Notes: generated from the letters alone by a model not told the origin. A stretch of DNA of 41,274 bases from Pseudomonadota bacterium (GCA_023411405.1 JAEYOU010000117.1:1-41274), one strand, 5' to 3'; numbered from the stretch's first letter, positions 2,626 to 41,252 are shown. Translations and numbers: made by a program.

Positions 2626-5600
2626 CAGGACCTCCGCCGTCGCATCGCTGCCCTGCGTGCGGTACCCCGGCCCATGCTCTCCTCGAAGTTCTGCGACGTC
2701 GGCGCCCGGCCGACGAGCTCCGCCCATCCGCGCACCGTGGGGTTCCTGAAGATGTCGACGATGGGGATCTCCCTCGCGTACGTCTCCTGGAGCTTGCGCT
2801 GGACGCGCACCATCAGCAGCGAGTCACCGCCCACCTCGAAGAAGTTGTCGTGCACGCCCAGGCGAGCGACGTGGAGCAGCTCCTGCGTGAAGCTCGCGAT
2901 CGTCTGCTCCACCTCGTTGCTGGGCGCCACGTACTCCGATCTGGCCTGGTGCAATGCCTTCTGGCCCGGCGAGGGCAAGGCCCGGCGATCCACCTTGCCG
3001 TTGGGGGTGAGCGGCAACTCGTCCAGCACCACGTAGGTCGAGGGCACCATGTGCGCGGGGAGCTTGGCCTTCAGGAACGAGGCCAGCGCGTCCTGCTTGA
3101 ACCGCCGTGCGGTGGGAGGCGCCTGGGCGAGCATCACGTGCTGGCCCAGGCGCGCGGTCGCGTCGCCAGGCTCCGGGAAGGCAGCGAAGCGCGAGAACCC
3201 GCGAGCGAGGAGGAGCCGCTCCCACTCGCCTGGCGGGAGGAAGGGGACGTTTCGCTCCGTCCGCTCGTCGTCGAACGCGCTCATGCCCTCGATGAACCCC
3301 ACCGTCATCATCTGCCAGCGGGCGTAGCGCGTCCCCTCGACCATCAGCAGCACTCCCCCCGGCGCGAGCAGCGAGAGGAGGTTCGGCAGGGTCTGCTGCA
3401 GGCTCCGCGCGTCATGGAGCACGTTGGCGGCCACGATCGCGTCGTAGGCGTGCAGCGCGTAGCCCTGCACCTCCGGACCTTCGTCGATGTTCAGCAGGCC
3501 GTACTCGACGAACGGGTACTCCCGGAACTTCTGCCGGGCCTGATCCGTGAAGAACGTGGATCGATCGGTGTACGTGTAGACGGTCGCATCGGGCGGCAGG
3601 CGCGGCAGCAGCGAGGCCGTCGTCCCGCCGGTGCCGGCGCCAACCTCGAGCACCCGCAACGGCTGCCCGGCCGGCCACCGCCTCGCCAGCCCCTCCATCA
3701 CCCCCGCCGCGATGGCGTTGTAGTACTGCGACACGGGGTTGAACTGGTACAGGCTCTCGGCGGTCTCCCACGAGCCGCCCGGGAAGAAGAGGTCGAGCGG
3801 GTCCGCCTGCCCCCGGAGCATGGCCGTCAGGTGGGCTCCGCTCTCCGTCAAGTACGAGAGGAGCGCCTGCGCTTCCGACCCGACCTCTCCGGCGCCTCGC
3901 TGGAGTCGGTCCCACTCCTCGCGCTGCCTGTCCGGCAGGTCCGTCGGCAGGGGCTCCGGGCAGGCATAGGCCTCCCCTCGGCTCCGGAGCAGGCCCTCCT
4001 CACGAAGCGCCTCGAGCCACTGGCCCACGAGCTTCCGGTAACGGGGCAGGATCTCGAAGCGCGTCAGCAGCTCGTCCAAGGTGTGGGCGGCTCCCGCCTG
4101 TTCGAACGCGCCCAGCTCCCTGAGAGCGCGGCACAGGTATCCGATGCTCAGCCTGTCCAGGGCGTCCATGGCGCGCGCGAGGCCATCGAGGTCGGCGGGA
4201 GCACGCTTCGCCTGCGACCCTCCCGCGTCCACCAGGTGATCCCAGCGGAGCTGCACCTGCGCGGCGTCCGCCGTGTCCGTCTCGAACAGCTCCGCGTCCT
4301 TGCCTGGAGCGGGCACGATGTATGCGACGAGTTGCTTGTCGCCGCGCGGATCGCCTACCGCCTGCACGACCCCGGTACGCAGGCCCGGATGGCGCTCCAG
4401 CGTCGCCTCGATCTCGCCGAGCTCCACCCGGTGCCCGCGGATCTTCACCTGCGAGTCGTCCCGCCCCAGGAACTCGACGTTGCCGTCGGGCAGGTACCGC
4501 CCCCAGTCGCCGGTGCGGTACAGCCGTTCGCCGGTCCGTGGGTGAACGATGAAGCGGGCGCGGGTCTTCTCGTCGTCACGCCAGTACCCCTTCGCCAACC
4601 CGACGCCGCCGATGTAGAGCTCTCCGGGCACCCAGACCGGGCGAAGCTCGAGCCGGGCGTCGAGCACCTCGAGGGTCTGGTTCACCATCGGTCTGCCGTA
4701 CGGGATGCTCTTCCAGCCCGGCTCCACGCGACCGACGGGGTAGAGGATCGACCAGATCGAGGCCTCCGTCGCGCCGCCGAGGCTGACGACGGCGAGCGGC
4801 GCCTCGGCGCGCTCGCGGATGCGGTCGGGAAGCGTCACCGGGATCCAGTCGCCGCTCATCATCACCAGGCGCAGGGATGCGGGCAGCCGCCTCCTCATCC
4901 CCTCGACGTACTCGACGAGCATCTCCATCAGCTCGGGCACCGTGTTCCAGAGCGTGACCTGATGCTCCTCGAGGAGGCGGGCCCAATGCGCTGGATCGCG
5001 ACCCCCTCCCGCAGAGGGGATCACCACCGTCCCGCCGGCCCCCAGGACGCCGAACAGGTCGTAGACCGACAGGTCGAAGCTGAGGGACGAGAGCGCCAGC
5101 ACCCGATCGCGCGGCTGGACCCCGAAGCGCCGATTCACGTCCAGGCAGGTGTTGAGCGCGCCGCGATGGTCGATCATCACTCCCTTGGGCGCTCCCGTGG
5201 ACCCGGAGGTGAAGATGACGTAGGCAAGGTCGTCCGGCGACTGGACCGGCGCCGGGGAGGAGTCGTCCGCGTCCTCCCAGGCACGATCACCGATGACGAC
5301 ACGCCGGATCTCGGCGGGCCAGTCGAAGCTCCTGTCGATCCAGGGCTGCGTGAGGACGACCGACACCCCTCCATTCTCCAGGAGGAAGCGAACCCGCTCC
5401 GGAGGGAGCGCCGGGTCGATCGGGAGGTAGGCGGCTCCTGACGCCAGGACGCCCAACGCCGCCACGACCTGCTCCCAGCCCTTCTCCATCACGATCCCGA
5501 TCAGCTGGTTGGGACGAGCGCCGAGCTGCCGGAGCCGGTTGCCGACCTGGTTGGACCGACGATGGACCTCGCCGTAAGAGAGCGTGCGGAGCGGGGTGAT

Positions 5601-7250
5601 GATGGCCGGGAGGTCGGGGGCGTGCACCGCATGCTGGAGGAACGGCTGGTGGAGCAGGCCGTCCGGCACGGGTTCCCTCGTCGCGCTGATCGCCGCGCGC
5701 TGCTCCAGCTGGGCTTCCGGCACGAGCGTGAAGGACGATCCCCACGCCTGCGGCTCGTCGGCGAGTCGCCGCAGCAGCCGGCAGTAGGCGCCGAACATGT
5801 CGTCCAGCATCCCGGGCGGGAAGAGCTCCTCGACGGCGTCCCAGCTGAGCACCAGCGCACCGCGCTCCTCGAACACCTGGTGATCGAGCCACACCTGAGG
5901 AGTCTGGCTGACGCCAAACACGCTCCTGCCGAGCTCGGTGAAGGAAGAGATCTCCTGGCCCGCATCCTCCAGCGCCAGCGCGCTGGTGAAGACGACGGGC
6001 ATGCCGGACATGGCGGCGTGCCCCTGTGCGCGGGACAGCTCACGCAGGACGCGCACGCCGTTCACCTGGCTGTGCTCGAGGTCCTGCCAGAGCTGCTCGT
6101 GGATGCGCCGCGCATGCGCCTCGAAGCTGTCGGGCGAGCCGTCCACCTCGACCAGGATCGTCGCGGTGAAGTCGCCGACGACTTCGGTCACCTGGGGATG
6201 GAGCGGGAGCCGGTTGAAGTAGGTGAGGTTGAGCGTGAAGCGCGGGCTCTTGCTCCACGAGGCCAGCACCCTCGAGAAGGCCGCGAGGACCACCTCCGAC
6301 GGCGTCAGGTGGGCGCGGGACGCGTTCGCCCGGAGACGTCCCCAGGTCTCGGGGTCGACGGTCTCGCGACGCCGGACGAAGCGCGGCTGGGTCACGGCAG
6401 CAGGCGCCTTGGCCAGCGGCAGCTCGACCGAGCCCGGCATCGTCGCCAGGCGATCTCGCCAGTAGTTCAGATCGCGCTGGTAGCTCTCCGACGTCTCGAG
6501 CGCTGCCTGGGCCAGGACATAGTCGCGGAAGGAGAGCTCCAGGGGAGCGAGCCGCGCCTGGGGATCGCGGTAGAGCTGGAGCAGCTCGGCGAGCACGATC
6601 CGAGAGCTCCAGACGTCTCCCACCAGCAGGTCGAAGCTGATGTGGAGCCGCGTCACCCGATCGTCGAGCCGGCTTGCGCGCACCTCGAACAGCGGCCACT
6701 GGTCGGCGGGCAGCACCTGGTGCGACATGCGCTCGCGGATCGCCTCGAGCTCGCGCGCCTGCTCCTCCGGCGCCCGCCCTCTGAGATCCAGCACCTCGAT
6801 CCGGTAGGGGGGCACCTGCTCCAGGATCCGCTGGTGCCCGTCGGACAGCACGACCGCGCGGAGCATGTCGTGACGCTCCACGACCTTCTGCCAGGCGCAG
6901 CCAAAGCGCTCCAGGTCGAGGTCGTCGTAGTCGTCCTCGGTGTACGAGTGGCAGGCCACATTCCCGAGTTCGAACGCTCCGCTCCGCCCGAGCCAGTAGG
7001 CTCGCTGGATGTCGGTGAGCGGGAACGGCTCGTGGCGCTGCGCCGGCGCGGGCACGAGCGTCGGAGCCGAGCCCCCCTTTCCTCGTCGCTCGCGCAGGAG
7101 GGTGACCAGCTGCGCCTTGTGCGCCGTCAGCCGCTCCCGCAGCCCGGGCGTGAGCGTCCCCTCAGGCGCGCGGTAGCGCAGCCGCTCACCCTCCAGCCAC
7201 AGCTCCACGCCTTGCTTGGTCAGGTCACCCAGCAGCTCGTCCATGCTCAT
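2625..7250 (-). CDS. NRPS: N-terminal docking domain-Cy-A(Cys)-embedded MT-PCP (1541 aa)
   Basis: ATG at 7250 overlaps the upstream stop (ATGA). TubC-N-like start (LLGDLTKQGVELWLEGERLRYRAP); Cy motif DLLVGDVWS and SQTPQVWLD; A motifs YVIFTSGSTGAPKGV, FDLSVYD, GGATEASIWS (hand-read code DLYNMSLIW = Cys); MT VLEVGAGTGG / ANVLH inserted near the A C-terminus; PCP FFEVGGDSL. Confidence 0.93.
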   Translation of the reverse strand: MSMDELLGDLTKQGVELWLEGERLRYRAPEGTLTPGLRERLTAHKAQLVTLLRERRGKGGSAPTLVPAPAQRHEPFPLTDIQRAYWLGRSGAFELGNVACHSYTEDDYDDLDLERFGCAWQKVVERHDMLRAVVLSDGHQRILEQVPPYRIEVLDLRGRAPEEQARELEAIRERMSHQVLPADQWPLFEVRASRLDDRVTRLHISFDLLVGDVWSSRIVLAELLQLYRDPQARLAPLELSFRDYVLAQAALETSESYQRDLNYWRDRLATMPGSVELPLAKAPAAVTQPRFVRRRETVDPETWGRLRANASRAHLTPSEVVLAAFSRVLASWSKSPRFTLNLTYFNRLPLHPQVTEVVGDFTATILVEVDGSPDSFEAHARRIHEQLWQDLEHSQVNGVRVLRELSRAQGHAAMSGMPVVFTSALALEDAGQEISSFTELGRSVFGVSQTPQVWLDHQVFEERGALVLSWDAVEELFPPGMLDDMFGAYCRLLRRLADEPQAWGSSFTLVPEAQLEQRAAISATREPVPDGLLHQPFLQHAVHAPDLPAIITPLRTLSYGEVHRRSNQVGNRLRQLGARPNQLIGIVMEKGWEQVVAALGVLASGAAYLPIDPALPPERVRFLLENGGVSVVLTQPWIDRSFDWPAEIRRVVIGDRAWEDADDSSPAPVQSPDDLAYVIFTSGSTGAPKGVMIDHRGALNTCLDVNRRFGVQPRDRVLALSSLSFDLSVYDLFGVLGAGGTVVIPSAGGGRDPAHWARLLEEHQVTLWNTVPELMEMLVEYVEGMRRRLPASLRLVMMSGDWIPVTLPDRIRERAEAPLAVVSLGGATEASIWSILYPVGRVEPGWKSIPYGRPMVNQTLEVLDARLELRPVWVPGELYIGGVGLAKGYWRDDEKTRARFIVHPRTGERLYRTGDWGRYLPDGNVEFLGRDDSQVKIRGHRVELGEIEATLERHPGLRTGVVQAVGDPRGDKQLVAYIVPAPGKDAELFETDTADAAQVQLRWDHLVDAGGSQAKRAPADLDGLARAMDALDRLSIGYLCRALRELGAFEQAGAAHTLDELLTRFEILPRYRKLVGQWLEALREEGLLRSRGEAYACPEPLPTDLPDRQREEWDRLQRGAGEVGSEAQALLSYLTESGAHLTAMLRGQADPLDLFFPGGSWETAESLYQFNPVSQYYNAIAAGVMEGLARRWPAGQPLRVLEVGAGTGGTTASLLPRLPPDATVYTYTDRSTFFTDQARQKFREYPFVEYGLLNIDEGPEVQGYALHAYDAIVAANVLHDARSLQQTLPNLLSLLAPGGVLLMVEGTRYARWQMMTVGFIEGMSAFDDERTERNVPFLPPGEWERLLLARGFSRFAAFPEPGDATARLGQHVMLAQAPPTARRFKQDALASFLKAKLPAHMVPSTYVVLDELPLTPNGKVDRRALPSPGQKALHQARSEYVAPSNEVEQTIASFTQELLHVARLGVHDNFFEVGGDSLLMVRVQRKLQETYAREIPIVDIFRNPTVRGWAELVGRAPTSQNFEESMGRGTARRAAMRRRRS

Positions 7251-10200
7251 AGCTCGCCCTCCTCCCACCCGATCCGTCCGCCCAGCAGCGTGTGGACATG
7301 GACGTGGCTCTCGTCGAGATCGAAGAGCTGCGCGATCGGCTCGAACTGGATGTTGCCGATCTGACAGAGCCCGATCCGACAAGACGGCGCCGTGCTCTCC
7401 AGGAGCTGCGCCATGAGTCCGGCCTCGACCAGCGCGAAGTCCCGACTCCTCTTGCCGTACAGCGGCGCGATGGCGCCGAGCTGCGCGATGAAGAAGATGG
7501 AGAAGGCCGACTCGTCGAAGATCGTCTGGTTCTCGAAGAAGTGGATCTTGCGGTCGATCCGACCCGTGCCGGACAGCAGCACGAGACCGTTCCCCGCCGG
7601 GTCGTGGTAGTACACGCCCCCGGCGACGCCCTCGACCCGACCCGGCTTGACGAACAGGTACGTCTGGACGGCGTAGGTGGGGCCGGCAGAGCCGTAGAGG
7701 TACTTGGGAAGACCGTCCACGGTGAGCGGGCACAGGCAGCGCAGCAGCCTGCCGAGCTGCTCCAGCGCGATCGGCTGGCGCACGAACCGGCGGTGGCTGC
7801 GCCGCTCTGCGTACAGCCTCCGCATGGCCTCGTCCAGCTCCGGCGCGGGCAGCCCGATTCGCGCGGGCGCCCCGGAGATCGAACGCACGCCGTGCCGCGC
7901 CTTCTTGAACCTCTCTCGCTCCTCGGGATCGAGCAGCACCTTGAACGACGCCAGGATTGGGTCCTCCGACGCTCCCGCCGCTGCGGGCGCCTCGCCCGGG
8001 CCCAGGCGTTGCTCGTAGAACGAGGCGATCCCACCGAGCGTCTGGATGCGGAAGAACTCGGCGAGCTCCGGCCGGGAGCCGAACTCCTTCTCCAGGAGGT
8101 TGGCCATCCGGATCAGGTCGACCGAGGTCGCGCCGAGCTCCAGGAAGTTGGTGCCTCCGTCCACCTTCTGCTTCAGCACCTCCTCCGCGATCGAGACGAC
8201 CTTCGCCGTGACTCCGCTCCCGGCGGCCCGCGCCGGCGAAGCCGCCGTCGCGTCGGGGGCAGGCAGGGCCTTCCGATCCACCTTGCCGTTGGCGGTGAGC
8301 GGCAAGGCGCTCAGGGACACGTAGGTGCCCGGCACCATGTACGCGGGGAGCTTGCGCTCGAGCCACTCGCGGAGGCCGGCGGGAGTGGGCGCCTCGGCCG
8401 CGGCAGAGGGCACCACGTAGGCGACGAGCCGCCGATCGCCGCGCGGATCGCCGATGGCCGCGACGGCGACGGTCCGGACGGCTGGGTGCTGCTCCAGCGC
8501 GGCCTCGATCTCCCCGAGCTCGATCCGGTAACCATGGACCTTGACCTGAAGATCCTCCCGCCCCAGGAACTCGATGTCCCCGTTCGGCAGGTAACGCCCC
8601 AGGTCGCCGGTCGCGTAGAGCCGCTCGCCGGTCCGGGGATGGGTGATGAACCGGGCCCGGGTCTTCTCCTCGTCTCCCCAGTAGCCGCGCGCCAGGCCGA
8701 CGCCGCCGATGTAGAGCTGGCCGGAGACCCAGACCGGACAGGGCTCCAGCAGCGCGTTGAGGACGTGGAACTGCTGGTTCACCATCGGCTTGCCGTACGG
8801 GATGCTCTTCCACTCCGGATCGACGTGGTCGATGGGGTGGAGGATGGACCAGATCGAGGCCTCGGTGGCGCCGCCGAGGGACACGATCTGGACGTCGCGC
8901 CGCGCGAGGCGCCGGATCCGGTCCGGGAGCGCCACCGGGATCCAGTCACCGCTCATCAGCACGACGCGCAGCGACGGCGGGAGGTGGGAACCGCGACCGG
9001 CCTCGTACTCGACCAGCAGCTCCATCAGCGCAGGGACGCTGTTCCAGAGCGTCACTCGCTCGCGCTCCACGAGCGCCGCCCAGTGAGCGGGGTCACGCCG
9101 CTCTTCCCGGGAGGGGAGGACGACGGTGCCGCCGGCGCCCAGCACACCGAACACGTCGTACACGGAGAGATCGAACCAGAGCGCCGACAGGGCCAGCACG
9201 CGGTCGTCCGGGCCCACCGCGAAGCGCTCGTTGACGTCCACGCAGGTGTTGAGCGCGCCGCGATGATCGATCATCACGCCCTTCGGAGCGCCCGTCGATC
9301 CGGAGGTGAAGATCACGTAGGCCAGGTCCTCGGGGGCCTGGACCGAGGCCAGCGGACGGTCGTCCACGCCCACCCACGACGCGTCCTCGACCACCAGGCG
9401 AACGCTCCCCGCCGGCCAGCGCACGGCGTCGCGCAGCTGCGGCTGCGTGAGCACCACCTCGACCTGCCCATTCTCGAGCAGGTAGCGGATCCGTTCCTCG
9501 GGGAGCGATGGATCGATGGGCAGGTAGGCCGCGCCCGAGGACAGCACGCCCATCACCGCGACCACCTGCTCCCACCCCTTCTCCATGACCACGCCGACGA
9601 GCCGATTGGGCTTCGCGCCCAGCTCGCGCAGACGCCGGCCCAGCTGGTCGGCGCGCCGCCGCAGCTCGCCGTACGTCAAGCTGCGCTCCCCGGACACGAC
9701 GGCGATCTGCTCGGGCCGCCGCGCCGCCTGCGCGAGGAAGGGCTCGTGGAGCAGCCCGCTCGGCACCGGCGCCTGGGTCCCGTTCGCGGAGGCGCGCTGT
9801 GCGAGCTGCGCCGCGGGGACGAGCCGTGGAGTGGCCTCCTGCCACGCCTCGTCACCGTCGGCGAGACGCTGAACGAACCCGCGGTAGGCCGCGAGCATGT
9901 CGTCGAGCATCCCCGCCGGGAAAAGCTCTTCCAGCGCGTCCCAGCTCAAGACCAGCTTGCCGTCTTGCTCGAAGACCTGGTGGTCCAGCCAGACCTGCGG
10001 CGTCTGCGAGACGCCATAGACCTGCTTGCCCTCGCCCATGAGGAGGGACTTCGCTCCGCCCCAGGACTCCTGGACGAGCGTGCTCGTGAAGACCACGGGT
10101 ACGGACGCCGTCTGGCTGCTCCGGAGCCGGATGAGCTCGCGCTGAACCTGGACACCGCCGACATAGCGATGCTCCAGATCCTCCCAGAGCCGCTCCTGCA

Positions 10201-20854: not shown

Positions 20855-22072
20855 TCACACGTGCGTCATCGCGGTCACTGGGGACAACCGGGCCGCCTTG
20901 ACCGCGGGATACAGCGAGGCGAACACGCAGACGAGCCACATCGCGCCGATGGCGAGCGCGACGCTCGACGCGACGACCTCGCCGCGCAGCAGCGCGTCGA
21001 ACGCGATGCCGCCGAAGCTGAAGGACGCGTCACCGAAGACGCTCAGGTCGAGCCCATGCACCTGGGTGTACCAGGCGACGCTCACGCCGAGCGCCCCCCC
21101 GACGACGGTGGCCACGAGCCCGAGCAGGAAGGCCTCGGCCGCGATGTCCCCGACGATCCGCCAGGCCGTGGCCCCCAGCGCCTTCATGGTGCCGAACTCC
21201 CGCACGCGGTCGTGCGTGGCCATGAGCATCGTGTTCAGGACGCCCAGGCAGGCCGCCGCGAAGAAGATGAACATGAAGACGAGCGACAGCGCCTCGAAGA
21301 CCTGCACGAGGTTGAAGACGACCGGGAGGAGCTCTCCCCAGGTCTTGAGCTCGAGCCCAGGCGGCAGCGGCCCGAGCGCGGCGCCCAGCGCGGCCGCGGG
21401 GCGATCGCCGAGGCTGAACGCGAGCTCGTGGACCCGTCCCCCCGACACGAAGAGCGCCTCGAAGTCGGCCCGGTGGATCAGCACCGCCCCGCGATCGACC
21501 TCCTCGCTCACGGTCTTCAGGATCCCCGCGACGCGGAAGACCTCCGTGCCGAGTGAGCCGTCCGCCGCCTGCACCACGGCGACGAGCTCGCCACCCACGT
21601 CCAGGTCGAGGCTCCGCGCCAGCTTGCGGCCGATCACGACCTCTCGCGCCGGCGCGTCTCCCAGGAAACGACCCGCCATCACCTCTCCGGGCAGGGCGAA
21701 CGCCGCGCGCTCCGCCCGCGGCTCCACGCCCCAGAGGCTCGCGCCCGCCGACTTCGTCCCCGCCGCGATGAGCCCGTCCCCGTAAGCGCGCGCCACGGCC
21801 TGGATGCCCTGCGCGGACGCGGCCTCGACGATGCGCTCGGGAGAGGGGATCGCGTCGTGGAACCTGTGGGAGCGGAGATAGCCCACCGCGTGGAGCTGGG
21901 CGTCTCCCACGACCAGCCGCGTGGCGTTGTGGACGAGCAGGCGCTGGAACCCGCCGATCAGCCCGAGCGCGACGATCAGGACGGCGGTGTTCAGCCCCAC
22001 CGCGACGATCGTGATCGCGCTCCTTCGCCGGTTCCGAAGGAGGTTGCGCCAGGCGAGCCGGAAGTCGGACAC
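20855..22072 (-). CDS. Second ABC transporter permease, FtsX/LolC-E type (alternative GTG start at 22081)
   Basis: LAWRNLLRNRRRS, MATHDRVREFGTMKALG, SLYPAVKAARLSPV. Confidence 0.9.
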   Translation of the reverse strand: MSDFRLAWRNLLRNRRRSAITIVAVGLNTAVLIVALGLIGGFQRLLVHNATRLVVGDAQLHAVGYLRSHRFHDAIPSPERIVEAASAQGIQAVARAYGDGLIAAGTKSAGASLWGVEPRAERAAFALPGEVMAGRFLGDAPAREVVIGRKLARSLDLDVGGELVAVVQAADGSLGTEVFRVAGILKTVSEEVDRGAVLIHRADFEALFVSGGRVHELAFSLGDRPAAALGAALGPLPPGLELKTWGELLPVVFNLVQVFEALSLVFMFIFFAAACLGVLNTMLMATHDRVREFGTMKALGATAWRIVGDIAAEAFLLGLVATVVGGALGVSVAWYTQVHGLDLSVFGDASFSFGGIAFDALLRGEVVASSVALAIGAMWLVCVFASLYPAVKAARLSPVTAMTHV

Positions 22073-22077
22073 GGCCT

Positions 22078-22854
22078 TCACCGCTCCAGGTTCCGAAGCG
22101 AGAAGAAGTCGTCCGAGAGCGGGATGTCGAAGCGCAGGTCGTCCTGCCGAAGCTCGGTGAGTTCGTTGGGCTTGTCCGTCACGGTGACCCTCATGACGAG
22201 CGGCACGGTGCGCTGTCCGACCCGCTTCGGCTCCTCGAAGACCATCGTGCGCGCGAGCTTCATGTCCTCGCCGAAGAAGAGCTGCCGGAGCGCCAGGCAG
22301 CTCTCTGCGTCGACCTCGACCGCCACCTTCCCCCAGACGATGGCCGCGTCCGGCTTGGGGATGCAGGTCACCTCGACGATGTTCCGGCCGTCCCGCGCGC
22401 CAGTGAAGGTCTTCTCGAACGTGTAGTCCTCGCTCATCCGGCTCTCCTTCACGAGGTCGTCGTTCGTGACGTGGCTCCCCATCCACGAGCTCGTCATCAT
22501 CGAGGCCGGGACCTTGATGGTCCGCCTGACCTTCGGCAGGTAGTTCCAGACGTTCTTCTCGACCATCAGCGTCGCCGTGCCGTGCTCCTTCGCCGGCGCA
22601 ACGATTCGCACCAGCGATCGCCGGACTCCCTTGCTCCAGGCCTCGAGCTTGAGAGTCCGCGTCCAGTGAGCCGTGACCACCTTCATCGTCGCGGTCCGGT
22701 GAGAAGACGTGCCTCGGTACATGTCGTCCACGCGATCGAGGATCTCCTTCGCGTCGAGCTGTGAGCACGACTGCGCCGCAGCCACACGCGGCGCCCCGCC
22801 GAGCGAGACGAGCAGCGGCACCACGATCGCCGAGCGAGAGCAGCGGAATGCCAT
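22078..22854 (-). CDS. Outer-membrane lipoprotein-sorting (LolA-like) periplasmic protein
   Basis: Signal peptide; motifs PAKEHGTATL, WNYLPKVRRT, SWMGSHVTNDDL, DDFFSLRNL typical of the LolA-like family. Confidence 0.85.
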   Translation of the reverse strand: MAFRCSRSAIVVPLLVSLGGAPRVAAAQSCSQLDAKEILDRVDDMYRGTSSHRTATMKVVTAHWTRTLKLEAWSKGVRRSLVRIVAPAKEHGTATLMVEKNVWNYLPKVRRTIKVPASMMTSSWMGSHVTNDDLVKESRMSEDYTFEKTFTGARDGRNIVEVTCIPKPDAAIVWGKVAVEVDAESCLALRQLFFGEDMKLARTMVFEEPKRVGQRTVPLVMRVTVTDKPNELTELRQDDLRFDIPLSDDFFSLRNLER

Positions 22855-22918
22855 GCGTCCTTCCCCTTCTTCGCTCGTCCGCGTACGTCGACGGTCGCTC
22901 CGGGGAGCGCACGAAGAA

Positions 22919-22930
22919 TGATCTAGATCA
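22919..22930. promoter_or_regulatory. Perfect palindrome TGATCTAGATCA, CRP/FNR-family-like operator
   Basis: ATGAT-CTAG-ATCAG vs FNR consensus TTGAT-N4-ATCAA; lies in the divergent intergenic region. Confidence 0.5.
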
Positions 22931-23171
22931 GTATTTCGCTTCAGGAGCAGGCCTTCCCGCCCGGTGAACCCAGTCGTCGTGGCGCCAGAGCCTGCCTTCA
23001 GCTCGAGTCGCGGGGCACGCTATCAGCACTCGGTTCCCCACGCAGCCTAGGACCGCCGGTGTACCCACCATGGGTGCAACCTTGGATGGATGACAGTCTC
23101 CCCATTCGTGTGGTTCCTAATCGTCATACTCTGGGTTGCTGCTACTGACGGTCCGTTGCGGAGGCCATGAG

Positions 23172-23939
23172 GTGACCACAAGCCGCGAGCGAGCGGGGCT
23201 TCTCTGCCTTCCGTACGCGGGTGGGTCCGCGAGGATCTACCGCAGGTGGAGCGAGGAGCTCGGTCCCTCGATCGAGGTCGTTCCGCTTGAACCCGCGGGG
23301 CGCGGTACGCGCTTCGGGGAGCCCTTCCCCACCTCCATCGCCGCGGCGGTGCACGACCTCCAGAGGCGCGCCGCGCCGGCGATCCGCGGCAAGTACGCGC
23401 TCTTTGGCCACAGCATGGGCGCGCTCCTTGCCTGGGAGCTGGCGCGTGCGCTCGTCTCCGCCTCGCTCCCGCCTCCGGAGCAGCTCTTCCTCTCGGGCAA
23501 GCCGCCCCCCCACGTCGTGCCGCGAAGACCTGTCCACGCGCTGCCCGAGGCCGAGTTCTTGCGGAGCGTCGCCGCGATGGGTGGAACGCCGCGCGAGGTG
23601 CTCGAGAACGACGAGCTCATGCAGATCTTCCTGCCCGTCCTCCGCGCGGACTACCGGATGACGGAGACGTACGCTCCGCGGTCCGAGGTCGACCCACTGG
23701 ACTGCGGCATCACCTTCTTCTTCGCCACCGCCGACCCAACGCTCTCGCGCGATCAGGTGGAGGGCTGGCGGCGCTATACGCGGGGGGAGTTCCGGATCCT
23801 CGACCACGAGGGCGGGCACTTCTTCCTGCTCGAGAAGGGACGGGAGCTCGCCAGGGAGATGCGGCACGTCCTCGGTCGACCGGAGAGCACCCGCCCGGCG
23901 CCCATGTTCGTGGAGGCGGGTGACCGCGTCGAGGTCTGA
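23172..23939 (+). CDS. Type II (editing) thioesterase
   Basis: CLPYAGGSA, GHSMG, LPVLRADY, GGHFF; GTG start preceded by GGAGG. Confidence 0.92.
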   Translation: MTTSRERAGLLCLPYAGGSARIYRRWSEELGPSIEVVPLEPAGRGTRFGEPFPTSIAAAVHDLQRRAAPAIRGKYALFGHSMGALLAWELARALVSASLPPPEQLFLSGKPPPHVVPRRPVHALPEAEFLRSVAAMGGTPREVLENDELMQIFLPVLRADYRMTETYAPRSEVDPLDCGITFFFATADPTLSRDQVEGWRRYTRGEFRILDHEGGHFFLLEKGRELAREMRHVLGRPESTRPAPMFVEAGDRVEV

Positions 23940-24007
23940 CTGCGCCAAGAGCAAGCACGCGGCGCCGCGAGCTGCCCGAGCGGCGCGGCGCACGGGAGAG
24001 GTGTGTC

Positions 24008-25339
24008 ATGAGCGGCGAAGCCTCCGTGACGAGGAAGGTACCCAGGGTCGCGGCACGAGCACACGGGACCACGGAGCCTCGCCGGCCGGCGTGGGGCCGC
24101 TTCGACGGAAGCCTCCTCGACGCCTGGCAAGCGCGCGCGGCCGTCCTCGAGGCGGAGGTGCCATCCCCGCACGACCCGGAGTCGCGCGCCTATCTGGAGG
24201 CGATGGCCGCGTCCGACTTCTCCCCGTTCTTTCGGCGCCTCGAGTCCGCTGCGGCCGAGACCGCCGTCATGGACGGCTACCGGGTCGTCATGCTCGGCGC
24301 CAACAACTACCTGGGCCTCACGACGGACCCGCGCGTCACGCGGGCGAGCATCGCTGCAATCGAGCGGTACGGCACGGGCTGCACCGGCTCGCGGTTCATG
24401 AACGGCACGTTGCCGCTGCACCTCGAGCTCGAGAGCCGGATGGCCCGCTTCCTGCGCAAGGAGGCGGCGCTCGTGTTCAGCGCCGGGTTCCTCGCCAACA
24501 TCGGTGTCCTCTCCGTCGTGGCGGGCCGGCACGCTTACCTGTTCTCGGATCGTGCCAACCACGCCAGCATCTGCGACGGCATCTCGGCTTCGAGGGCCGA
24601 GCCCATGCGGTTCGAGCACAACGACCCGGACTCGCTGGCGGAGAAGCTCCGCCGCGCCCCTGCCGCCGCGGTGAAGTGGGTCGTCGTCGAGGGCGTCCAC
24701 AGCATGTTCGGCGACGTGTGCCCTCTGCGTGAGATCATCGCGGTCGCCAGGGCCCACGGAGCGCGGATCATCCTCGACGACGCCCACGGGGTCGGCGTGT
24801 TGGGGGACGCCGGGCGGGGGACGGCGAACCACCTCCAGGTCGAGGACGAGGTGGATCTGATCGTCGGCACGTTCAGCAAGTCCTTCGCCTCCTACGGCGG
24901 TTTCGTCGCGGGCGATCGAGGCACCATCGAGCAGCTGCGCTACGGGACCCGTTCCTTCATCTTCACCGCAGGGCCACCGCCGGCGACGGTCGCGACGGTG
25001 CTCGCTGCGCTCGACGTGCTCGAGCAAGATCCTGCGATCGTGAGCCGGCTGCGGCAGAACACGCTCGAGCTCGCCGGCCGCCTGCGCGCGGCAGGGCTCG
25101 TGGATCGGGATCCGCCCGCCGCGATCATTCCGCTCGTGATCGGGTCCAACGACCGCACGTGGAAGGCATGGAGGCTGCTCTACGAGGGCGGTGTCTACAC
25201 CAACGCGGCCTTCCCCCCTGGGGTTCCGGCGGGCCAGGCGCTCCTTCGCCTCTCGCTGATGGCGACCCTGCGTCCGGAGTCGATCGAGTACGCCGCAAAC
25301 GCCATCACCTCGGCGTTCCGCGTGCTGAGGCTGACGTGA
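24008..25339 (+). CDS. spt: PLP-dependent alpha-oxoamine synthase, serine palmitoyltransferase-like
   Basis: NNYLGL, GTGCTGSRFMNGT (Spt-type), NHASI, DDAHG, GTFSKSF (PLP Lys); adjacent to bCerS-like and CerR-like genes. Confidence 0.8.
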   Translation: MSGEASVTRKVPRVAARAHGTTEPRRPAWGRFDGSLLDAWQARAAVLEAEVPSPHDPESRAYLEAMAASDFSPFFRRLESAAAETAVMDGYRVVMLGANNYLGLTTDPRVTRASIAAIERYGTGCTGSRFMNGTLPLHLELESRMARFLRKEAALVFSAGFLANIGVLSVVAGRHAYLFSDRANHASICDGISASRAEPMRFEHNDPDSLAEKLRRAPAAAVKWVVVEGVHSMFGDVCPLREIIAVARAHGARIILDDAHGVGVLGDAGRGTANHLQVEDEVDLIVGTFSKSFASYGGFVAGDRGTIEQLRYGTRSFIFTAGPPPATVATVLAALDVLEQDPAIVSRLRQNTLELAGRLRAAGLVDRDPPAAIIPLVIGSNDRTWKAWRLLYEGGVYTNAAFPPGVPAGQALLRLSLMATLRPESIEYAANAITSAFRVLRLT

Positions 25340-26499
25340 CCTCGGCCTTCGCGCGGAACGCGCCGATCGTCGGGGGCGGCCCTCTCGAGGTGACACCTGT
25401 CGGCGGGGCCGAAGACCTTCGAGAGTTCGTGGAGCTGCCGGAGCGGCTTTACCAGGGAGTTCGTCACTGGGTGCCGCCGCTCCGCTCCGAGGAGCGGCGC
25501 TTCCTCTCGGAGAGGAACCCCTACGTCGCCGCAAACCCGGTGCGCCTGTTCCTGGCGCGTGAGCGTGGCGTGCCGGTGGGCCGCGTCGCCGCGACCGTGT
25601 GCAGCGCGCACAACGCGTACCACCACGAGCGAACGGGGTTCTTCGGCTTCTTCGAGTGCGATGGACGGGCGGTCACGGCACGCGCGCTGCTAGGCGCCGC
25701 CGCCCAGTACGTCCGCGACCACGGCATGCGGACCCTCCGCGGGCCGTTCAATTTCACGACCAACCACACGTGCGGCGTGCTCGTCGAAGGATTCGAAGGC
25801 CCCCCGATCATCGAGATGCCCTATCACCCGCCACACTACGGCGCGCTCCTCGAGGACGCTGGGCTCCGCAAGGCGAAGGACCTGTTCGCGCTCTGGCACG
25901 ACATCGAACAGGGGAAGCCACAGCGACAAGCGCTCGCGGGGCTCGCGCGCGCCGCGCCCGCCGCGTACGCCGTGCGGGAGCTGCGGCGCTCGGGGCGAGG
26001 CTTCGCGGAGGACATGGACCGCTTCTACGACCTCTATCATCAGGCCTGGCGGGGAAACTGGGGCTTCGTCCCGGTCCCACGCGACGAGTTCGTCTACATC
26101 GGGAGGCGGATGCAGTCTCTCTTGAGGCCCGGGCTCTGCCACGTGGTCACGGTCCGGGGGGAGACGGCCGGGATGGTGATCAACCTCCCCGACTACAGCC
26201 CGGTGCTGTCCGCGCTCCGGGGCCGAGTGACGCCCGGGGGCGCCTTGCGGGCCTGGTGGGCGAGCCGTCGCGTCGACGCGAGCCGCTGCATCCTCGTCGG
26301 CGTGTACGATCGGTTCCGGGGAACGCCGGCCACCACCCTGCTCGTGCACCACCTGCTCGAGGGAGCGGCGCGAGCGGGGTACCGAGGCGTCGAGACCTCG
26401 TGGGTGCTGGAGGACAACGCCGCATGCCTTCGAGGCTTCGGGAAGCACGGGTTCGTGCCGTACCGGCGCTACCGGATCTACGAGCAGCCGGTGGCCTGA
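25336..26499 (+). CDS. GNAT-fold N-acyltransferase, bacterial ceramide synthase (bCerS/YghO)-like (387 aa)
   Basis: GTGA overlap with spt; motifs WVPPL, GRVAA, GFFGFFE, LRGPFN, MPYHPPHY, WRGNWGFVP, SWVLEDN, YRIY. Confidence 0.78.
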   Translation: MTSAFARNAPIVGGGPLEVTPVGGAEDLREFVELPERLYQGVRHWVPPLRSEERRFLSERNPYVAANPVRLFLARERGVPVGRVAATVCSAHNAYHHERTGFFGFFECDGRAVTARALLGAAAQYVRDHGMRTLRGPFNFTTNHTCGVLVEGFEGPPIIEMPYHPPHYGALLEDAGLRKAKDLFALWHDIEQGKPQRQALAGLARAAPAAYAVRELRRSGRGFAEDMDRFYDLYHQAWRGNWGFVPVPRDEFVYIGRRMQSLLRPGLCHVVTVRGETAGMVINLPDYSPVLSALRGRVTPGGALRAWWASRRVDASRCILVGVYDRFRGTPATTLLVHHLLEGAARAGYRGVETSWVLEDNAACLRGFGKHGFVPYRRYRIYEQPVA

Positions 26500-26510
26500 A
26501 GGGGGGCGCC

Positions 26511-27512
26511 ATGTCCGTGCCACGTACAGGCGACGACTCCGTGCTGGTCACCGGCGCCAGCGGCTTCATCGGCCGGGCACTCGTCTCGGAGCTGATGCTC
26601 CAGGGGCGGAACGTCAGCGCACTGGTCCGGCGGCGCGAGCAGGCGATCGCGCTCGGTGCCCGGCCGGTGGTCGGCGATGTCACCGACCCCGACTCGCTCG
26701 TCGGGTTCGGCGCGTTCTCGGAGGTGTACCACCTGGCCGGCACGATCGCGGCGCGGAGCGCCGCCGAGTTCCAGCGCATCAACGCGGACGGGTGCTGCCA
26801 CCTCTACCGCGCGCTGCGGCGCGCCCTCCGCCCTCCCCGGCGCATCGTCCACGTGAGCAGCATCGCGGCTGGTGGGCCGGCCGCAGACGCGACGCCTCGA
26901 CGCGAGGACGATCCGGACGTACCCGTGTCGATTTACGGCCGCACCAAGCACGCCGGCGAGGAGGTCGCGCGCGCCTTCATGGGCGACATTCCACTCGTCA
27001 TCCTCCGGCTGCCCGCCGTGTACGGCCCCGGGGACCGAAACCTGCTCCCCATCTTTCGCATGGCACGGCGCGGGCTCGTTCTGCGCCCGCCGGCGCAGCC
27101 CAAGCTCTTCAGCCTCGCCCACGTCGGCGACGTCGCGCGCATCCTGATCCGCGCCGCGGCGACGGAGTCGATCGTCGGCGGGCTCTACAACGTCGCCACC
27201 GGCTCGCCCGCGAGCTGGGACGAGCTCGTGGCCGAGATCGGCGCCGCCATGGGCCGCCGCCCGCGCCAGCTCTCGCTGGGCCGGCTGCCGTGGGTGGCGG
27301 CGGCCTACGCCAACGCGGGCCGCTGCTGGCTCGAGCGCGGAGCCCGCGTCGAGCTGCTCATCCCGCAGAAGCTCCCCGAGCTCTTCGAGCGCTACTGGCA
27401 CGTGGATGGCGGGCGCCTGCAGTCGGCGCTGGGCCACGTCACGACGACGCCCCTGGCGCAGGGGCTCGCGCAAACGGCGGAGTGGTATCGCCAGCAGGGT
27501 TGGCTGCGATGA
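26511..27512 (+). CDS. Extended SDR / NAD-dependent epimerase-dehydratase family; candidate ceramide (3-keto) reductase
   Basis: VLVTGASGFIG, HVSS, YGRTK, LRLPAVYGP; role inferred from gene context. Confidence 0.8.
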   Translation: MSVPRTGDDSVLVTGASGFIGRALVSELMLQGRNVSALVRRREQAIALGARPVVGDVTDPDSLVGFGAFSEVYHLAGTIAARSAAEFQRINADGCCHLYRALRRALRPPRRIVHVSSIAAGGPAADATPRREDDPDVPVSIYGRTKHAGEEVARAFMGDIPLVILRLPAVYGPGDRNLLPIFRMARRGLVLRPPAQPKLFSLAHVGDVARILIRAAATESIVGGLYNVATGSPASWDELVAEIGAAMGRRPRQLSLGRLPWVAAAYANAGRCWLERGARVELLIPQKLPELFERYWHVDGGRLQSALGHVTTTPLAQGLAQTAEWYRQQGWLR

Positions 27513-28360
27513 GGGCCCCCGTCGAGCCGTTGCCCGCCCCGGACCGCGAGGACTCCCTGGCCGCGCTTGGACGACTGGTCCCCCGTGCCCTGGGACCACT
27601 CTTCCTGGACAAGGCGGGACAGATCCTCCTCTCGACCGTCGTCCTCATCCTGCTCTGGGGCGCTCACGGACGATGCGAGCTCCTTCGCTTGGCGCTCCCA
27701 GGATGGACCGGCCCGGGAAGCGACCCGCGCGCGCGGTCGCGCTTCATCCCGTGGGTGCCGTGGGATCACGAGCTGATCTCGTTCGCGCTCGGCGCGTTGC
27801 TGCTCGTCGTGGTCCCGATGGCGCTCGTGAAGCTCGTCTTCCGCGAGCCCCTCGCAGCCTACGGCCTCGGGCTTCCGCCCGCTGGACGGCGGTGCGCGGC
27901 GCGATGGGTGTTCGCGCTGCTCCTCGTCCTGTCCCTGCCCGCGTTCTGGGCCTTCGCGCACGACCCCGAGTTCCAGCGGGTGTACCCCTTCTATCGCCGC
28001 TTCGCCGGCTGGGGGGAGTTCGCGGCCTACGAGGTGACGTACATCGCATTCTTCGTCGCGATCGAGTTCATCTTCCGGGGCTATCTCCTGTTCGGGCTGG
28101 CCGGGACTCCGCTCGGCCGCGCAGGATCTCGGTTCGCCGGACAGCGCGACCTTCCCGGCTTCGCGCTGCTCATCCAGATGCTTCCCTACACGGCCTGGCA
28201 CCTCGGGAAGCCCACGGCGGAGCTCTGGGGGACGCTGTTCTGGGGGTTCGCGTCGGGCCTGGGCGCCTGGGCGGCGCGCTCGATCTGGCCCGTGGTCGCG
28301 GCCCACTGGCTGCTGAACGTCTTCATGGACGCCTTGATCTGGAGGGCGAATGGCGGGTGA
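27509..28360 (+). CDS. CPBP (Abi/CAAX) family intramembrane glutamic protease-like protein (283 aa)
   Basis: Multi-TM; IEFIFRG, YTAWHLGKP, AAHWLLN motifs; ATGA overlap with upstream gene. Confidence 0.8.
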   Translation: MRAPVEPLPAPDREDSLAALGRLVPRALGPLFLDKAGQILLSTVVLILLWGAHGRCELLRLALPGWTGPGSDPRARSRFIPWVPWDHELISFALGALLLVVVPMALVKLVFREPLAAYGLGLPPAGRRCAARWVFALLLVLSLPAFWAFAHDPEFQRVYPFYRRFAGWGEFAAYEVTYIAFFVAIEFIFRGYLLFGLAGTPLGRAGSRFAGQRDLPGFALLIQMLPYTAWHLGKPTAELWGTLFWGFASGLGAWAARSIWPVVAAHWLLNVFMDALIWRANGG

Positions 28361-29168
28361 GACGCAGCGTCGGGACGAGTCGAGGGGAGCAGCCCTGGTC
28401 GGAGCCGCGCTTCCCTCCGACCAGCACCCGGAGCCTGCCGTGGCGGGCGCGGCGCTGAAGGCGACCGTCATCGTGGGCGTCACCGCGCTCTGCATCGCCG
28501 CGATGCTCGCACTGGGGATGGGGTTCGGGCGCGAGGTCTGGCTCACGCGCGCGTTCGGCGTGACGCTGTTCGGGAGCGACGTCTACCTGGGGACGTGGTT
28601 CCTGTTCATGTGCATGCCCGTGGTCGGCTTCGGCGTGCCGTGCTTGGTGATCCGGCGCGTGTTTCGCGAGAAGCTCGAGGACTACGGTCTCACGCTCGGC
28701 GACTCCCGCCCAGGCGTGGTCGCGCTGCTCGCCGCAGTCCCCGCCCTGGTCACGCTACCGCTCATCTCGAGCGCCATCGGGACCGAGCACTACTACGACT
28801 ACCTCCTCCTTCCGTCGTTCGTCGTCCCCTGGAAGATCGCCTTCCACCTCACGAGCTACGCGGCGTTCATCTTCGGGTACGAGTTCCTCATCCGCGGGTT
28901 CCTCCTCATCGGCCTCGCCCGCGCCTGGGGTGGGGATCGCAGGGCCCGCCTCGCCGCGCTCGCGGTATCGGCCGTGCTCGCGCCGCTGATCTTCATTGGG
29001 ACGCCCCCGCTCGTGTTCGTGCTCTCGTTCGCGATCTTCGCCTGGATCGGCGGTCCCCTCGCGCTCCGCACGCGCAGCATCATGTACTTCGCGTTCATCG
29101 AGTGGACGCTCGGCATCTGGTCCGACGCGTGGGAGATCATCAAGCTCAACGCGCGGTTCCCTGGCTAG
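28350..29168 (+). CDS. Degenerate CPBP-like membrane protein
   Basis: FREKLEDYGL and YEFLIRG resemble the neighbouring CPBP, but the His motifs are replaced (LIFIGTP; FIEWTLG). Confidence 0.65.
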   Translation: MAGETQRRDESRGAALVGAALPSDQHPEPAVAGAALKATVIVGVTALCIAAMLALGMGFGREVWLTRAFGVTLFGSDVYLGTWFLFMCMPVVGFGVPCLVIRRVFREKLEDYGLTLGDSRPGVVALLAAVPALVTLPLISSAIGTEHYYDYLLLPSFVVPWKIAFHLTSYAAFIFGYEFLIRGFLLIGLARAWGGDRRARLAALAVSAVLAPLIFIGTPPLVFVLSFAIFAWIGGPLALRTRSIMYFAFIEWTLGIWSDAWEIIKLNARFPG

Positions 29169-29283
29169 CGACGAGGCCGGGCGGACTGTCCATGCTCGAC
29201 GTCTCTCCTCCCGAGGCGCGCACGACACGGGCGACCGTCCTGGATGTACCGGCGAACACCCAGCCCTCCCCGAACGTCTCACG

Positions 29284-29685
29284 TCACTTCGACCAGGCGG
29301 CCTCGCGCCGGCGCTCCTCGCAGATGGCGGCGATCCCGTCCTCGATGGTCGCGGCCTCGGCCGTCGAGGCGTCGTAGCGGACGCCGCTCGTGTTCACCCA
29401 GAGACGAACCCGGGCGTCGCTGTGGACCCGGTACGAGTGCCGCGTGAAGTTCTTGTGGACCCGGGCTCGGTACTCCCCCCAGCGCGGCGCGACCGCGGGG
29501 TTGAGCCTGAACCCGGTCAGATCGACCACCAGGTCCATCCGCCGGCCGGGGAAGTTCTTCTCGAAGTAGTCGGCCCATACCTGGTACCACGGCTCCAGGT
29601 CGGCCTCGGTCTCGATGTGCCAGCGGGACGTGGCGATGACCACGTCGTTCTCGGCGTCGTACTGGAAGTCGATGGTTCCGCTCAT
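29284..29685 (-). CDS. Small hypothetical protein, possibly STAS/SEC14-like fold (133 aa)
   Basis: GC-biased codons; alpha/beta pattern (DLVVDLTGFRL ... ATIEDGIAAI). Confidence 0.6.
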   Translation of the reverse strand: MSGTIDFQYDAENDVVIATSRWHIETEADLEPWYQVWADYFEKNFPGRRMDLVVDLTGFRLNPAVAPRWGEYRARVHKNFTRHSYRVHSDARVRLWVNTSGVRYDASTAEAATIEDGIAAICEERRREAAWSK

Positions 29686-41150: not shown

Positions 41151-41252
41151 GAGACGATCCCCGCGGACCGCGGGCTGACGATCGTGGCGAGCGCGGGGAT
41201 GCGCGGGATCTGGGCGCGGCCGGAAACTGGCTCCCGGGTCGCTCCGGCCTGA
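40710..41252 (+). pseudogene. Truncated IS256-family transposase (N-terminal ~147 aa, no DDE domain)
   Basis: LEEEVTALLGR, GYRNGHGKPR, RPRVR, ELYLHGLAGGDF, LSASSIERL, then unrelated sequence to stop; AAGGAG RBS. Confidence 0.85.

Follow-up and report, generated by a model that had tools for sequence, protein, structure and literature searches.

The DNA analysed here, hereafter the window, is one whole contig (C341) of 41,274 nt with a G+C content of 70% (GCA_023411405.1 JAEYOU010000117.1:1-41274). It comes from a Pseudomonadota bacterium whose genome is available as a bin of 733 contigs (4.84 Mb, 87% complete, 4.2% estimated contamination). Combining third-position GC (GC3) with an open reading frame (ORF) analysis, we delimited two divergent operons, which flank an intergenic region of 281 nt (22855-23135). 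The plus-strand operon carries three genes for an Spt-like alpha-oxoamine synthase (AOS), a bCerS-like N-acyltransferase of the GNAT type, and a CerR-like short-chain dehydrogenase/reductase (SDR). Judged from its sequence, this trio is an intact Spt/bCerS/CerR module for a ceramide-type N-acyl amino alcohol, and its position beside a predicted thiazole-forming assembly line hints at an unusual hybrid lipid. The genes of the plus-strand operon are as follows:

24008..25339, plus strand: Spt-like AOS, 443 aa (Pfam Aminotran_1_2, E 2.6e-55)
25336..26499, plus strand: bCerS-like tandem-GNAT N-acyltransferase, 387 aa (Acetyltransf_6, 20 bits, a weak match below the cut-off of 22)
26511..27512, plus strand: CerR-like extended SDR, 333 aa (Pfam Epimerase, E 1.7e-30)
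23136..23939, plus strand: type II thioesterase, first gene of the operon (Pfam Thioesterase, E 4.3e-42)
27509..28360, plus strand: CPBP/Rce1-like intramembrane protease family protein (Pfam Rce1-like, E 1.3e-7; NCBIfam MrtA-like, 58 bits, below cut-off)
28350..29168, plus strand: a further CPBP-like protein of greater divergence, which closes the operon (NCBIfam MrtA-like at just 23.5 bits; no Pfam match; GC3 0.92)

An earlier prediction made from the sequence alone (hereafter the original prediction) had described three tightly linked genes joined by a GTGA overlap and then an 11-nt gap, and a direct reading of the junctions bears this out. The AOS starts at the ATG at 24008, upstream of which we read GGGAGAGG, and its TGA stop (25337-25339) overlaps the GTG start of the GNAT at 25336. 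The GNAT stop (26497-26499) is followed by 11 nt and by the ATG of the SDR at 26511. The SDR stop (27510-27512) in turn overlaps the ATG (27509) of the first CPBP gene in an ATGA arrangement, and the two CPBP genes are predicted to be translationally coupled to the SDR. Third-position GC tracks the three reading frames of the trio exactly on the plus strand. Upstream, a gap of 69 nt separates the thioesterase, whose named relatives are called "thioesterase II family" or "surfactin synthase thioesterase subunit", from the AOS; this gap holds no terminator-like site and its RNA fold is unremarkable (z 0.19). In a scan of 22700-29500, we found no promoter-like sites and a single terminator-like site, located inside the last gene and not above shuffles.

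The assignment of the AOS to the Spt family is well supported by sequence comparison. It shares 41% identity over 391 aa with the Spt of E. coli BL21 (BLASTP, E 5e-91), an enzyme whose activity is reported in PMC9386255. Its ten best PDB matches are all bacterial SPT (328.5 and 273-281 bits), with scores of at most 226 bits for BioF/KBL, at most 194 for ALAS, and 87 for the fungal SphA. The NCBIfam Spt models give 413, 386, and 312 bits, and bioF gives 345. The PLP-lysine motif GTFSKS is found at residues 288-293, and the motifs NHASI, DDAHG, and LLRLS align with SHASI, DEAHS, and LLRCS of the BL21 enzyme. Among the 76 columns conserved in at least 90% of 82 GNAT-adjacent AOS, the window protein keeps 68, whereas the Kbl-like paralog of the same bin, encoded on contig C207, keeps 54. 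In a maximum-likelihood tree of 49 sequences, built with E. coli Spt, BioF, and Kbl as references and 30 GNAT-adjacent rows drawn randomly from 81, the window AOS sits on a long branch (0.69-0.83), deep among the GNAT-adjacent AOS and beside a trio-linked metagenomic sequence (SH-aLRT 96-98); BioF, Kbl, and the Kbl-like paralog fall outside. A phylogeny of this kind had been proposed as a check on the original prediction, and its outcome agrees with it, the AOS nesting among GNAT-adjacent Spt-like proteins rather than with BioF/Kbl, with the caveat of a topology test given below. At its N-terminus, the AOS has an extension of about 60 residues (24008-24190), which aligns with no Spt reference or NCBIfam model, the matches starting at residues 55-72.

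The second enzyme is, with good support from its sequence, a member of the bCerS (YghO/CC_1154) family. It shares 29% identity with E. coli BL21 YghO over 376 of its 387 aa (BLASTP, E 2e-61), matches a Pseudomonas veronii plasmid gene annotated yghO (E 9e-43), and keeps 50 of the 55 family-conserved columns. The structure model (pLDDT 83, pTM 0.82) is that of a tandem GNAT, and the structures that Foldseek ranks highest are tandem GNAT N-acyltransferases that depend on CoA (TM 0.56-0.58). A PDB sequence search gave no match, and the protein atlas offered generic GNAT clusters only. The protein lies in a sub-clade of 12 members with 100% support, in which it is 78% identical to P0002 and 53-59% identical to the ten others, followed by a gap down to at most 45%; in a scan of metagenome contigs with the alignment of this sub-clade, the relatives reach at most 42% identity among the matches listed. 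Two outcomes that the original prediction had named as speaking against it, an AOS clustering with BioF/Kbl and a GNAT outside the bCerS clade, are not what we found, since the AOS nests with GNAT-adjacent Spt-like proteins and the GNAT is a full-length homolog of YghO/CC_1154. The GNAT family is also found without trio partners, in 34 of the 165 loci of the GNAT tree, these 34 having flanks of 3 kb or more on both sides. In one metagenome contig (L146, 3-12086), a bCerS-like GNAT with no AOS within 12 kb adjoins a fatty acyl-AMP ligase (FAAL) gene, whose product is 52% identical to that of the window, and genes resembling type II fatty acid synthase components (ketosynthase, FabG-like, FabA-like). 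This context suggests that the GNAT family is used in other lipid clusters too.

The third enzyme is assigned to the CerR family, again with good support. It is 31% identical over 231 aa to the BL21 epi product (ECD_02852, the CC_1164 homolog; E 3e-28), the C-terminal third remaining unaligned, and it keeps 31 of 36 family-conserved columns, with the motifs GASGFIG at residue 15 and YGRTK at residue 142. Its N-terminus extends only 14 residues ahead of the Rossmann motif, in which no signal-peptide-like stretch is seen by eye. The Caulobacter CerR is reported to be periplasmic (PMC11087976).

Taken with the canonical systems (CC_1162/CC_1154/CC_1164 in Caulobacter; ECD_02850-02854 in BL21), the window trio shows the same families and the same catalytic motifs. 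The identities are only 29-41%, and the window proteins stand on long branches or in a small sub-clade. The BL21 cluster is described as comprising spt (ECD_02854), acpR, epi (ECD_02852), aasR, and aca, i.e., yghO (ECD_02850) (PMC9386255), and Spt-like enzymes are reported to act on an acyl-AcpR made by the FAAL-type AasR (PMC9386255, PMC11324152). As in BL21, a fatty acyl-AMP ligase and an acyl carrier protein (ACP) are encoded near the window trio. Unlike in BL21, a type II thioesterase gene opens the operon, two CPBP genes close it, and the ACP is not AcpR-like. The BL21 cluster is then followed by LptG/LptF paralogs (L179, 9920-12066), whereas in the window a MacB/LolA-like system takes this place; according to the title of a 2026 bioRxiv preprint, paralogs of lipopolysaccharide transport proteins take part in sphingolipid transport in Caulobacter.

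The trio is also recognised by its gene order. Among 167 loci with a GNAT homolog, an AOS homolog is present in 91, an SDR homolog in 65, and all three in 61; these full trios are mostly contiguous and in the same order as in the window, and they span Gemmatimonadota, Dehalococcoidia, Planctomycetota, Fibrobacteres, relatives of the host order, and metagenomes. This conservation of order exceeds chance, and the three ceramide genes are reported to be often clustered (PMC11334938). The original claim that the trio matches the three enzyme families of ceramide synthesis is thus upheld by homology to BL21, by PDB ranking, and by synteny. Two trios with overlapping stops and starts are carried by plasmids: that of Streptomyces sp. 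NBC_01001 (L180, 10763-15289) has the order AOS-GNAT-SDR followed by a stand-alone condensation-domain protein of nonribosomal peptide synthetase (NRPS) type, and that of Rubrobacter radiotolerans (L181, 8749-14341) has the same order followed by a protein of the LTA-synthase family. Their plasmid location suggests that such trios are mobile.

Gene fusions give a further view of these enzymes. The best match of the window AOS among 1.84 billion cluster representatives is a natural Spt-bCerS fusion of 777 aa (P0361), whose C-terminal half is 34% identical to the window GNAT (BLASTP, E 2e-64); a protein of 780 aa (P0373) resembles it in length and Pfam pattern. When 16 long AOS homologs were scanned, fusions to FAAL-ACP or to polyketide synthase (PKS) domains were found in five (P0396, P0402, P0485, P0387, P0469). 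Two of these are FAAL-ACP-AOS, one is FAAL-ACP-luciferase-like-monooxygenase-AOS, one runs ACP-KS-...-AOS, where KS is a ketosynthase, and one is a protein of 2963 aa with the order FAAL-ACP-KS-DH-ER-KR-ACP-AOS, which includes dehydratase (DH), enoylreductase (ER), and ketoreductase (KR) domains.

The second operon diverges from the trio operon and encodes, from the intergenic region outwards, a putative export system, a set of acyl-activating proteins, and a PKS-NRPS assembly line with acyltransferase (AT), heterocyclisation (Cy), adenylation (A), peptidyl carrier protein (PCP), and oxidase (Ox) domains:

22078..22854, minus strand: LolA-like periplasmic carrier of lipids or lipoproteins, opening the divergent operon (Pfam LolA_like, E 4e-42)
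18912..22051, minus strand: MacB-type ABC exporter (FtsX/MacB_PCD permeases at 20855-22051 and 19619-20845; ATPase at 18912-19625)
17608..18888, minus strand: secreted protein whose N-terminus resembles a signal peptide and whose last residue is Phe (by eye; no Pfam family), possibly an outer-membrane barrel
15729-17528, minus strand: FAAL (34% identical to BL21 AasR, E 4e-89)
14557-15750, minus strand: acyl-CoA/ACP dehydrogenase (ACAD; profile matches)
14238-14540, minus strand: stand-alone ACP (PKS-like; no similarity to AcpR, E 0.07)
7247..14230, minus strand: PKS-NRPS KS-AT-ACP-Cy-A-PCP-Ox, 2327 aa (Pfam)
2625..7250, minus strand: NRPS with TubC-type docking-Cy-A(embedded methyltransferase)-PCP (Pfam; the start MSMDELL overlaps the upstream stop)
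175..2625, minus strand: PKS fragment with KS and an AT-like domain, no ACP (ends 174 nt from the contig end)

In each of the two condensation-type domains we find DxxxxDxxS, the motif of heterocyclisation (DLLVGDVWS in the Cy domain of the NRPS), and both A domains carry the motif set FDLSVYD...LWN(S/T)VP...SLGGATEASIW, which we take to be a cysteine signature. From these motifs, the assembly line is predicted to hold two cysteine heterocyclisation modules. The last PKS protein keeps the Cys-His-His of the KS intact, has GAGVG in place of GHSxG in the AT, i.e., a Gly in place of the active-site Ser, and ends in the post-AT linker YPFQRRRYW. No DH, ER, or KR domains were found in the window. 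Other contigs of the bin also hold PKS or NRPS pieces (C12, C129, C426, C486, and C591); we considered them as the missing end of the line and set them aside, their GC3 of 0.93-0.98 standing against 0.86-0.91 for the PKS/NRPS genes of the window. With PKS/NRPS, FAAL, ACP, and thioesterase genes all on the same contig, the trio does lie within a secondary-metabolite cluster, as had been proposed.

Is the trio a housekeeping system of this bacterium? The bin contains a second Spt-like AOS (C157, 10766-11989; L001), which is 47% identical to that of the window, lies between a histidine kinase and a DNA ligase, and scores 430 and 422 bits with the NCBIfam Spt models and 382 with bioF. No second bCerS-like gene was found in the bin. 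This answers the question raised with the original prediction as to whether the genome has a separate spt or bcerS. Across the genus, an AOS of the C157 type (47-48% identical to that of the window; also L175-L177) occurs in 15 of 36 congeners; neither there nor in the bin does a bCerS-like gene adjoin it. The best match of the window AOS in these 36 congeners does not exceed 48%, and the matches of 44-48%, in 15 congeners, are of the C157 type. As for the GNAT, 24 congeners yielded a single homolog, which is partial and weak (33%, E 6e-22), and 12 of 16 genomes of other families of the same order have one at 28-38% identity. No ortholog of the trio was found among the congeners, of which 36 were searched with the AOS and 24 with the GNAT.

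The DNA of the window itself tells a similar story. On its right flank, stretches of up to 3.4 kb are 68-84% identical to congener DNA, across an SNF2 helicase/SWIM region (32.4-35.8 kb) and a porin with a solute-binding protein (36.5-39.2 kb). Between 14238 and 29200, the congener matches are only about 0.15-0.86 kb long, at 65-79%, and fall on generic genes (ABC ATPase, core of the C157-type AOS, ACAD, FAAL). The long ORFs of the contig have a mean GC3 of 0.89; the median for the bin is 0.94, and 91 of the 668 contigs are as low or lower. The simplest reading of these comparisons is that the trio sits in a horizontally acquired island, missing as a whole from the 36 congeners, beside genus-typical DNA and is not a housekeeping system. 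On the right side, a fragment of a Mutator-family transposase lies at 40710-41252, and the last ~130 nt of the contig are repeated at 98-100% on contigs C319, C178, and C125, so that a repeated insertion sequence probably broke the assembly at that end. A minus-strand ORF of 102 aa (36062-36370) matches only positions 115-200 of the 295-position PALP profile (a PLP-dependent enzyme family) and is probably a gene remnant. No tRNA was found within the window.

One could object that the PKS-NRPS belongs to another genome than the trio, or that the contig is chimeric, the adjacency of the two being an artefact of assembly or binning. The bin is indeed a metagenome-assembled genome (MAG) of many contigs with some estimated contamination, as given above, and the GC3 of the contig lies under the genome median. 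Moreover, the sole public run with this sequence, from a soil metagenome, contains 7% of the sampled words of the window and gave identical pieces of 151-270 nt at ~14.7, 21.2, 25.1, 27.0, and 28.9 kb (depth 3-4), which bridge no junction. However, both halves of the locus are represented by such pieces in this one run, and their depths are alike and low. From the biosynthetic gene cluster (BGC) to the trio, GC3 stays uniform (0.86-0.93), with no composition break at the junction, which looks like any intergenic region from which two coding-dense operons diverge. Because the right flank of the same contig matches congeners, mis-binning is also unlikely. We consider an artefact very improbable.

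Our preferred reading, to which we give a probability of roughly 0.5, is that the island makes a specialised ceramide-type lipid. In this scheme, the trio would work on acyl chains built by the island and held on carrier proteins. The Spt-like enzyme would condense serine with such a carrier-bound acyl thioester, which may be a fatty chain loaded by the FAAL and ACP, possibly 2,3-desaturated by the ACAD, or a later chain of the PKS-NRPS, and would release it as a 3-keto amino alcohol. The tandem GNAT would then N-acylate this product, the SDR would reduce its 3-keto group, and the MacB/LolA-like system would move the lipid to the envelope. It is tempting to speculate that a 2-enoyl-ACP from the ACAD, if accepted by the Spt-like enzyme, would give a sphingosine-like 4,5-double bond. 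In favour of such a coupling, the trio operon is headed by a type II thioesterase, and homologs of the thioesterase, CPBP, LolA-like, and Phe-terminal proteins were found near none of the other 167 GNAT loci at E 1e-8, many of these loci being short. Relatives from metagenomes are known for the thioesterase (P0122, 71% identity) and, in a search with residues 1980-2327, for the PKS-NRPS (P0242, 2328 aa, 71% over the PCP-Ox region, identical Pfam architecture). These two and the closest GNAT relative, P0002, lie on separate short contigs.

Several observations weigh against this reading. The Spt-like protein has no docking or carrier domain. It stays below the cut-offs of the NCBIfam Spt models for CFB, Beta-, and Alphaproteobacteria (413.5/640, 385.8/500, and 312.4/670), which are clade-specific models whose cut-offs the resident paralog on C157 likewise fails. 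An approximately unbiased (AU) test does not reject the tree in which the AOS is forced together with BioF/Kbl (p 0.20), the cost of that constraint being 16.8 log-likelihood units. The ACP is PKS-like and its stop lies 7 nt ahead of the start of the PKS gene, a position just upstream of the first KS that points to a starter-unit role rather than to the role of AcpR. As a PKS-like protein unlike AcpR, it fits a starter set of the Jam or Mbt type better than a feeder of Spt; JamABC and MbtK-N are the starter sets with which we compared the FAAL-ACAD-ACP genes. The contig ends before the assembly line does, and the final module in view, a KS with an inactive AT and no ACP, is uninformative on release. 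The adjacency of trio and assembly line is known from one metagenomic assembly. The order and tight spacing of the trio are those of the 61 full trios among the 167 loci, mostly without PKS/NRPS, from which it follows that a trio needs no assembly line to function. Finally, P0003, a GNAT of the same sub-clade (58%), sits on a contig of 108,531 nt, and the best 120 thioesterase and best 120 PKS-NRPS relatives include no protein from a contig of this length, nor from contigs with the lengths of the other contigs of the sub-clade; as weak negative evidence, this suggests that the sub-clade probably exists without this assembly line.

The last two of these points lend themselves to a plainer account, in which the trio is a passenger. 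It would make ordinary ceramide from cellular acyl-CoA or acyl-ACP, or from chains supplied by an AasR/AcpR-like FAAL and ACP, while the PKS-NRPS would make a separate thiazole product, the two having been transferred together. The trio is complete and in canonical order, similar trios are mobile on the Streptomyces and Rubrobacter plasmids, and the BL21 cluster also has a fatty acyl-AMP ligase, to which that of the window is 34% identical, together with an ACP. On the contrary, the thioesterase that heads the operon and the CPBP genes coupled to the SDR are found beside no other GNAT locus scanned, the ACP directly precedes the KS gene and is not of the AcpR kind, and all three enzymes stand on long branches or in a separate sub-clade. 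In addition, since the genus is otherwise without bCerS, a role of ceramide in the envelope would be new to the lineage. We would not favour the passenger account, and we nevertheless take it seriously.

Two narrower forms of coupling involve the heterocyclic chain itself, and both build on models of the original prediction. In the first, Spt would off-load the thiazole/(methyl)thiazoline chain of the PKS-NRPS from the final carrier, joining it to serine in a decarboxylative condensation, bCerS and CerR would finish a heterocyclic ceramide analogue, and the MacB/LolA-like system would place it in the outer membrane; we think this unlikely. In the second, Spt would make an ordinary base, and either the GNAT or the terminal ACP-less KS, acting in the manner of CalA3, would join the assembly-line chain to the amine. 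The outline of the last PKS protein, i.e., intact Cys-His-His in the KS, Ser replaced by Gly in the AT, and no ACP, does match that of CalA3, which is reported to release its chain by amidation (PMC10006239), and the bCerS enzymes are described as N-acyltransferases (PMC11087976, PMC9386255). However, the DH/KR scaffold of CalA3 is absent from the KS-AT protein, and a separate ACP could lie past the contig end. The PDB chains of 1719-1738 aa, which we take to be CalA3, rank low for the KS-AT protein (~258 bits vs. 698 for the best match), so that the shared outline comes without a specific relation by this ranking. The fold search with the GNAT gave only CoA-dependent tandem GNATs and nothing indicating a carrier-protein donor; to our knowledge, no bCerS is known to use carrier-bound acyl donors. 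Together, these points make the second form quite improbable.

In favour of our preferred reading, the action of Spt-like enzymes on carrier-bound chains has good precedents in acyl-AcpR, in PfSgaAB, in the Deltaproteobacteria locus L032 described below, and in the FAAL-ACP-AOS and PKS-AOS fusions. Several known systems offer a comparison. In the PfSgaAB system of Pseudomonas fluorescens MYb115, an Spt-type AOS encoded in a BGC takes the chain of a type I PKS, and a reductase is encoded in the same cluster (PMC12134224). There, PfSgaA is a single iterative PKS making a plain fatty chain, the reductase is KDSR-like and not CerR-like, and PMC12134224, as far as its accessible text goes, describes no bCerS. 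In the window, by comparison, the PKS-NRPS is modular and includes two Cy modules, and both bCerS and CerR are encoded. Indeed, an iterative type I PKS as the sole supplier of the AOS, which characterises PfSgaAB-type clusters, is not what we found; instead, the proteins are KS-AT-ACP-Cy-A-PCP-Ox, Cy-A(MT)-PCP, where MT is the embedded methyltransferase, and KS-AT0, with an inactive AT. In the fungal Fum8/Fum13 and SphA/SphF systems, an AOS condenses the PKS chain with an amino acid to release it, after which the 3-keto group undergoes reduction (cited in PMC12134224). These systems are eukaryotic, without N-acylation of the bCerS type or NRPS heterocycles, and their AOS are far more distant than bacterial Spt. 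Both precedents bear on the original view that off-loading by the trio would be an unusual chemistry for an NRPS. This view is weakened, given that the release of carrier-bound chains by an AOS is already known (PfSgaAB, Fum8/SphA) and that PKS-AOS fusions are common.

Another parallel is found in a Deltaproteobacteria MAG (L032, 1729-13581), which encodes a bCerS-like GNAT (35%), an Spt-like AOS (42%, E 3e-82), a type I PKS, and a MacB-type exporter. The AOS gene diverges from a GNAT-PKS-SDR operon, followed by a MacB-type ABC ATPase and permease. Unlike in the window, the PKS is one highly reducing iterative-type protein (KS-AT-DH-ER-KR-ACP) encoded between GNAT and SDR, the SDR is only weakly like that of the window (E 4e-10), and the locus is without NRPS, Cy domain, or type II thioesterase. 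By its gene content, this locus looks like a PfSgaAB-type cluster also carrying a ceramide synthase. In mycobactin synthesis, the FAAL, acyl-ACP dehydrogenase, ACP, and GNAT of the mbt-2 locus (MbtK-N) attach an unsaturated fatty chain to an NRPS-PKS amine. Proteins of all four kinds are also encoded in the window, next to a Cy-containing NRPS-PKS. However, the NCBIfam models give 222 bits for MbtM (cut-off 621) and 47 bits for MbtN (cut-off 700), the window GNAT is of the YghO/bCerS family, and mycobactin synthesis is without Spt.

Published work already covers the canonical trio, chain release by an AOS, and PKS-derived sphingolipids. In the open-access literature searched, we found no case of a modular, heterocycle-forming PKS-NRPS accompanied by all of Spt, bCerS, and CerR. 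The definition of bacterial ceramide synthesis is recent, and the pathway is regarded as part of envelope lipid metabolism; PKS-derived sphingolipids were reported in 2025. If our preferred reading is true, a trio on a mobile island, together with a thioesterase, FAAL-ACAD-ACP, PKS-NRPS, and an exporter, would extend the idea of PKS-derived sphingolipids beyond plain fatty chains to modular assembly lines. If heterocyclic off-loading is also true, it would be a sphingolipid-type termination of a hybrid line, with three ceramide enzymes recruited to secondary metabolism. The Spt-bCerS, FAAL-ACP-AOS, and PKS-AOS fusions, together with the Deltaproteobacteria locus, suggest that such a recruitment of ceramide enzymes into specialised metabolism is recurrent. 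The trio would also offer a concrete case for asking whether Spt or bCerS enzymes accept carrier-bound, non-fatty acyl chains. Even if it makes ordinary ceramide, it would still document the horizontal gain of sphingolipid synthesis by a genus lacking it.

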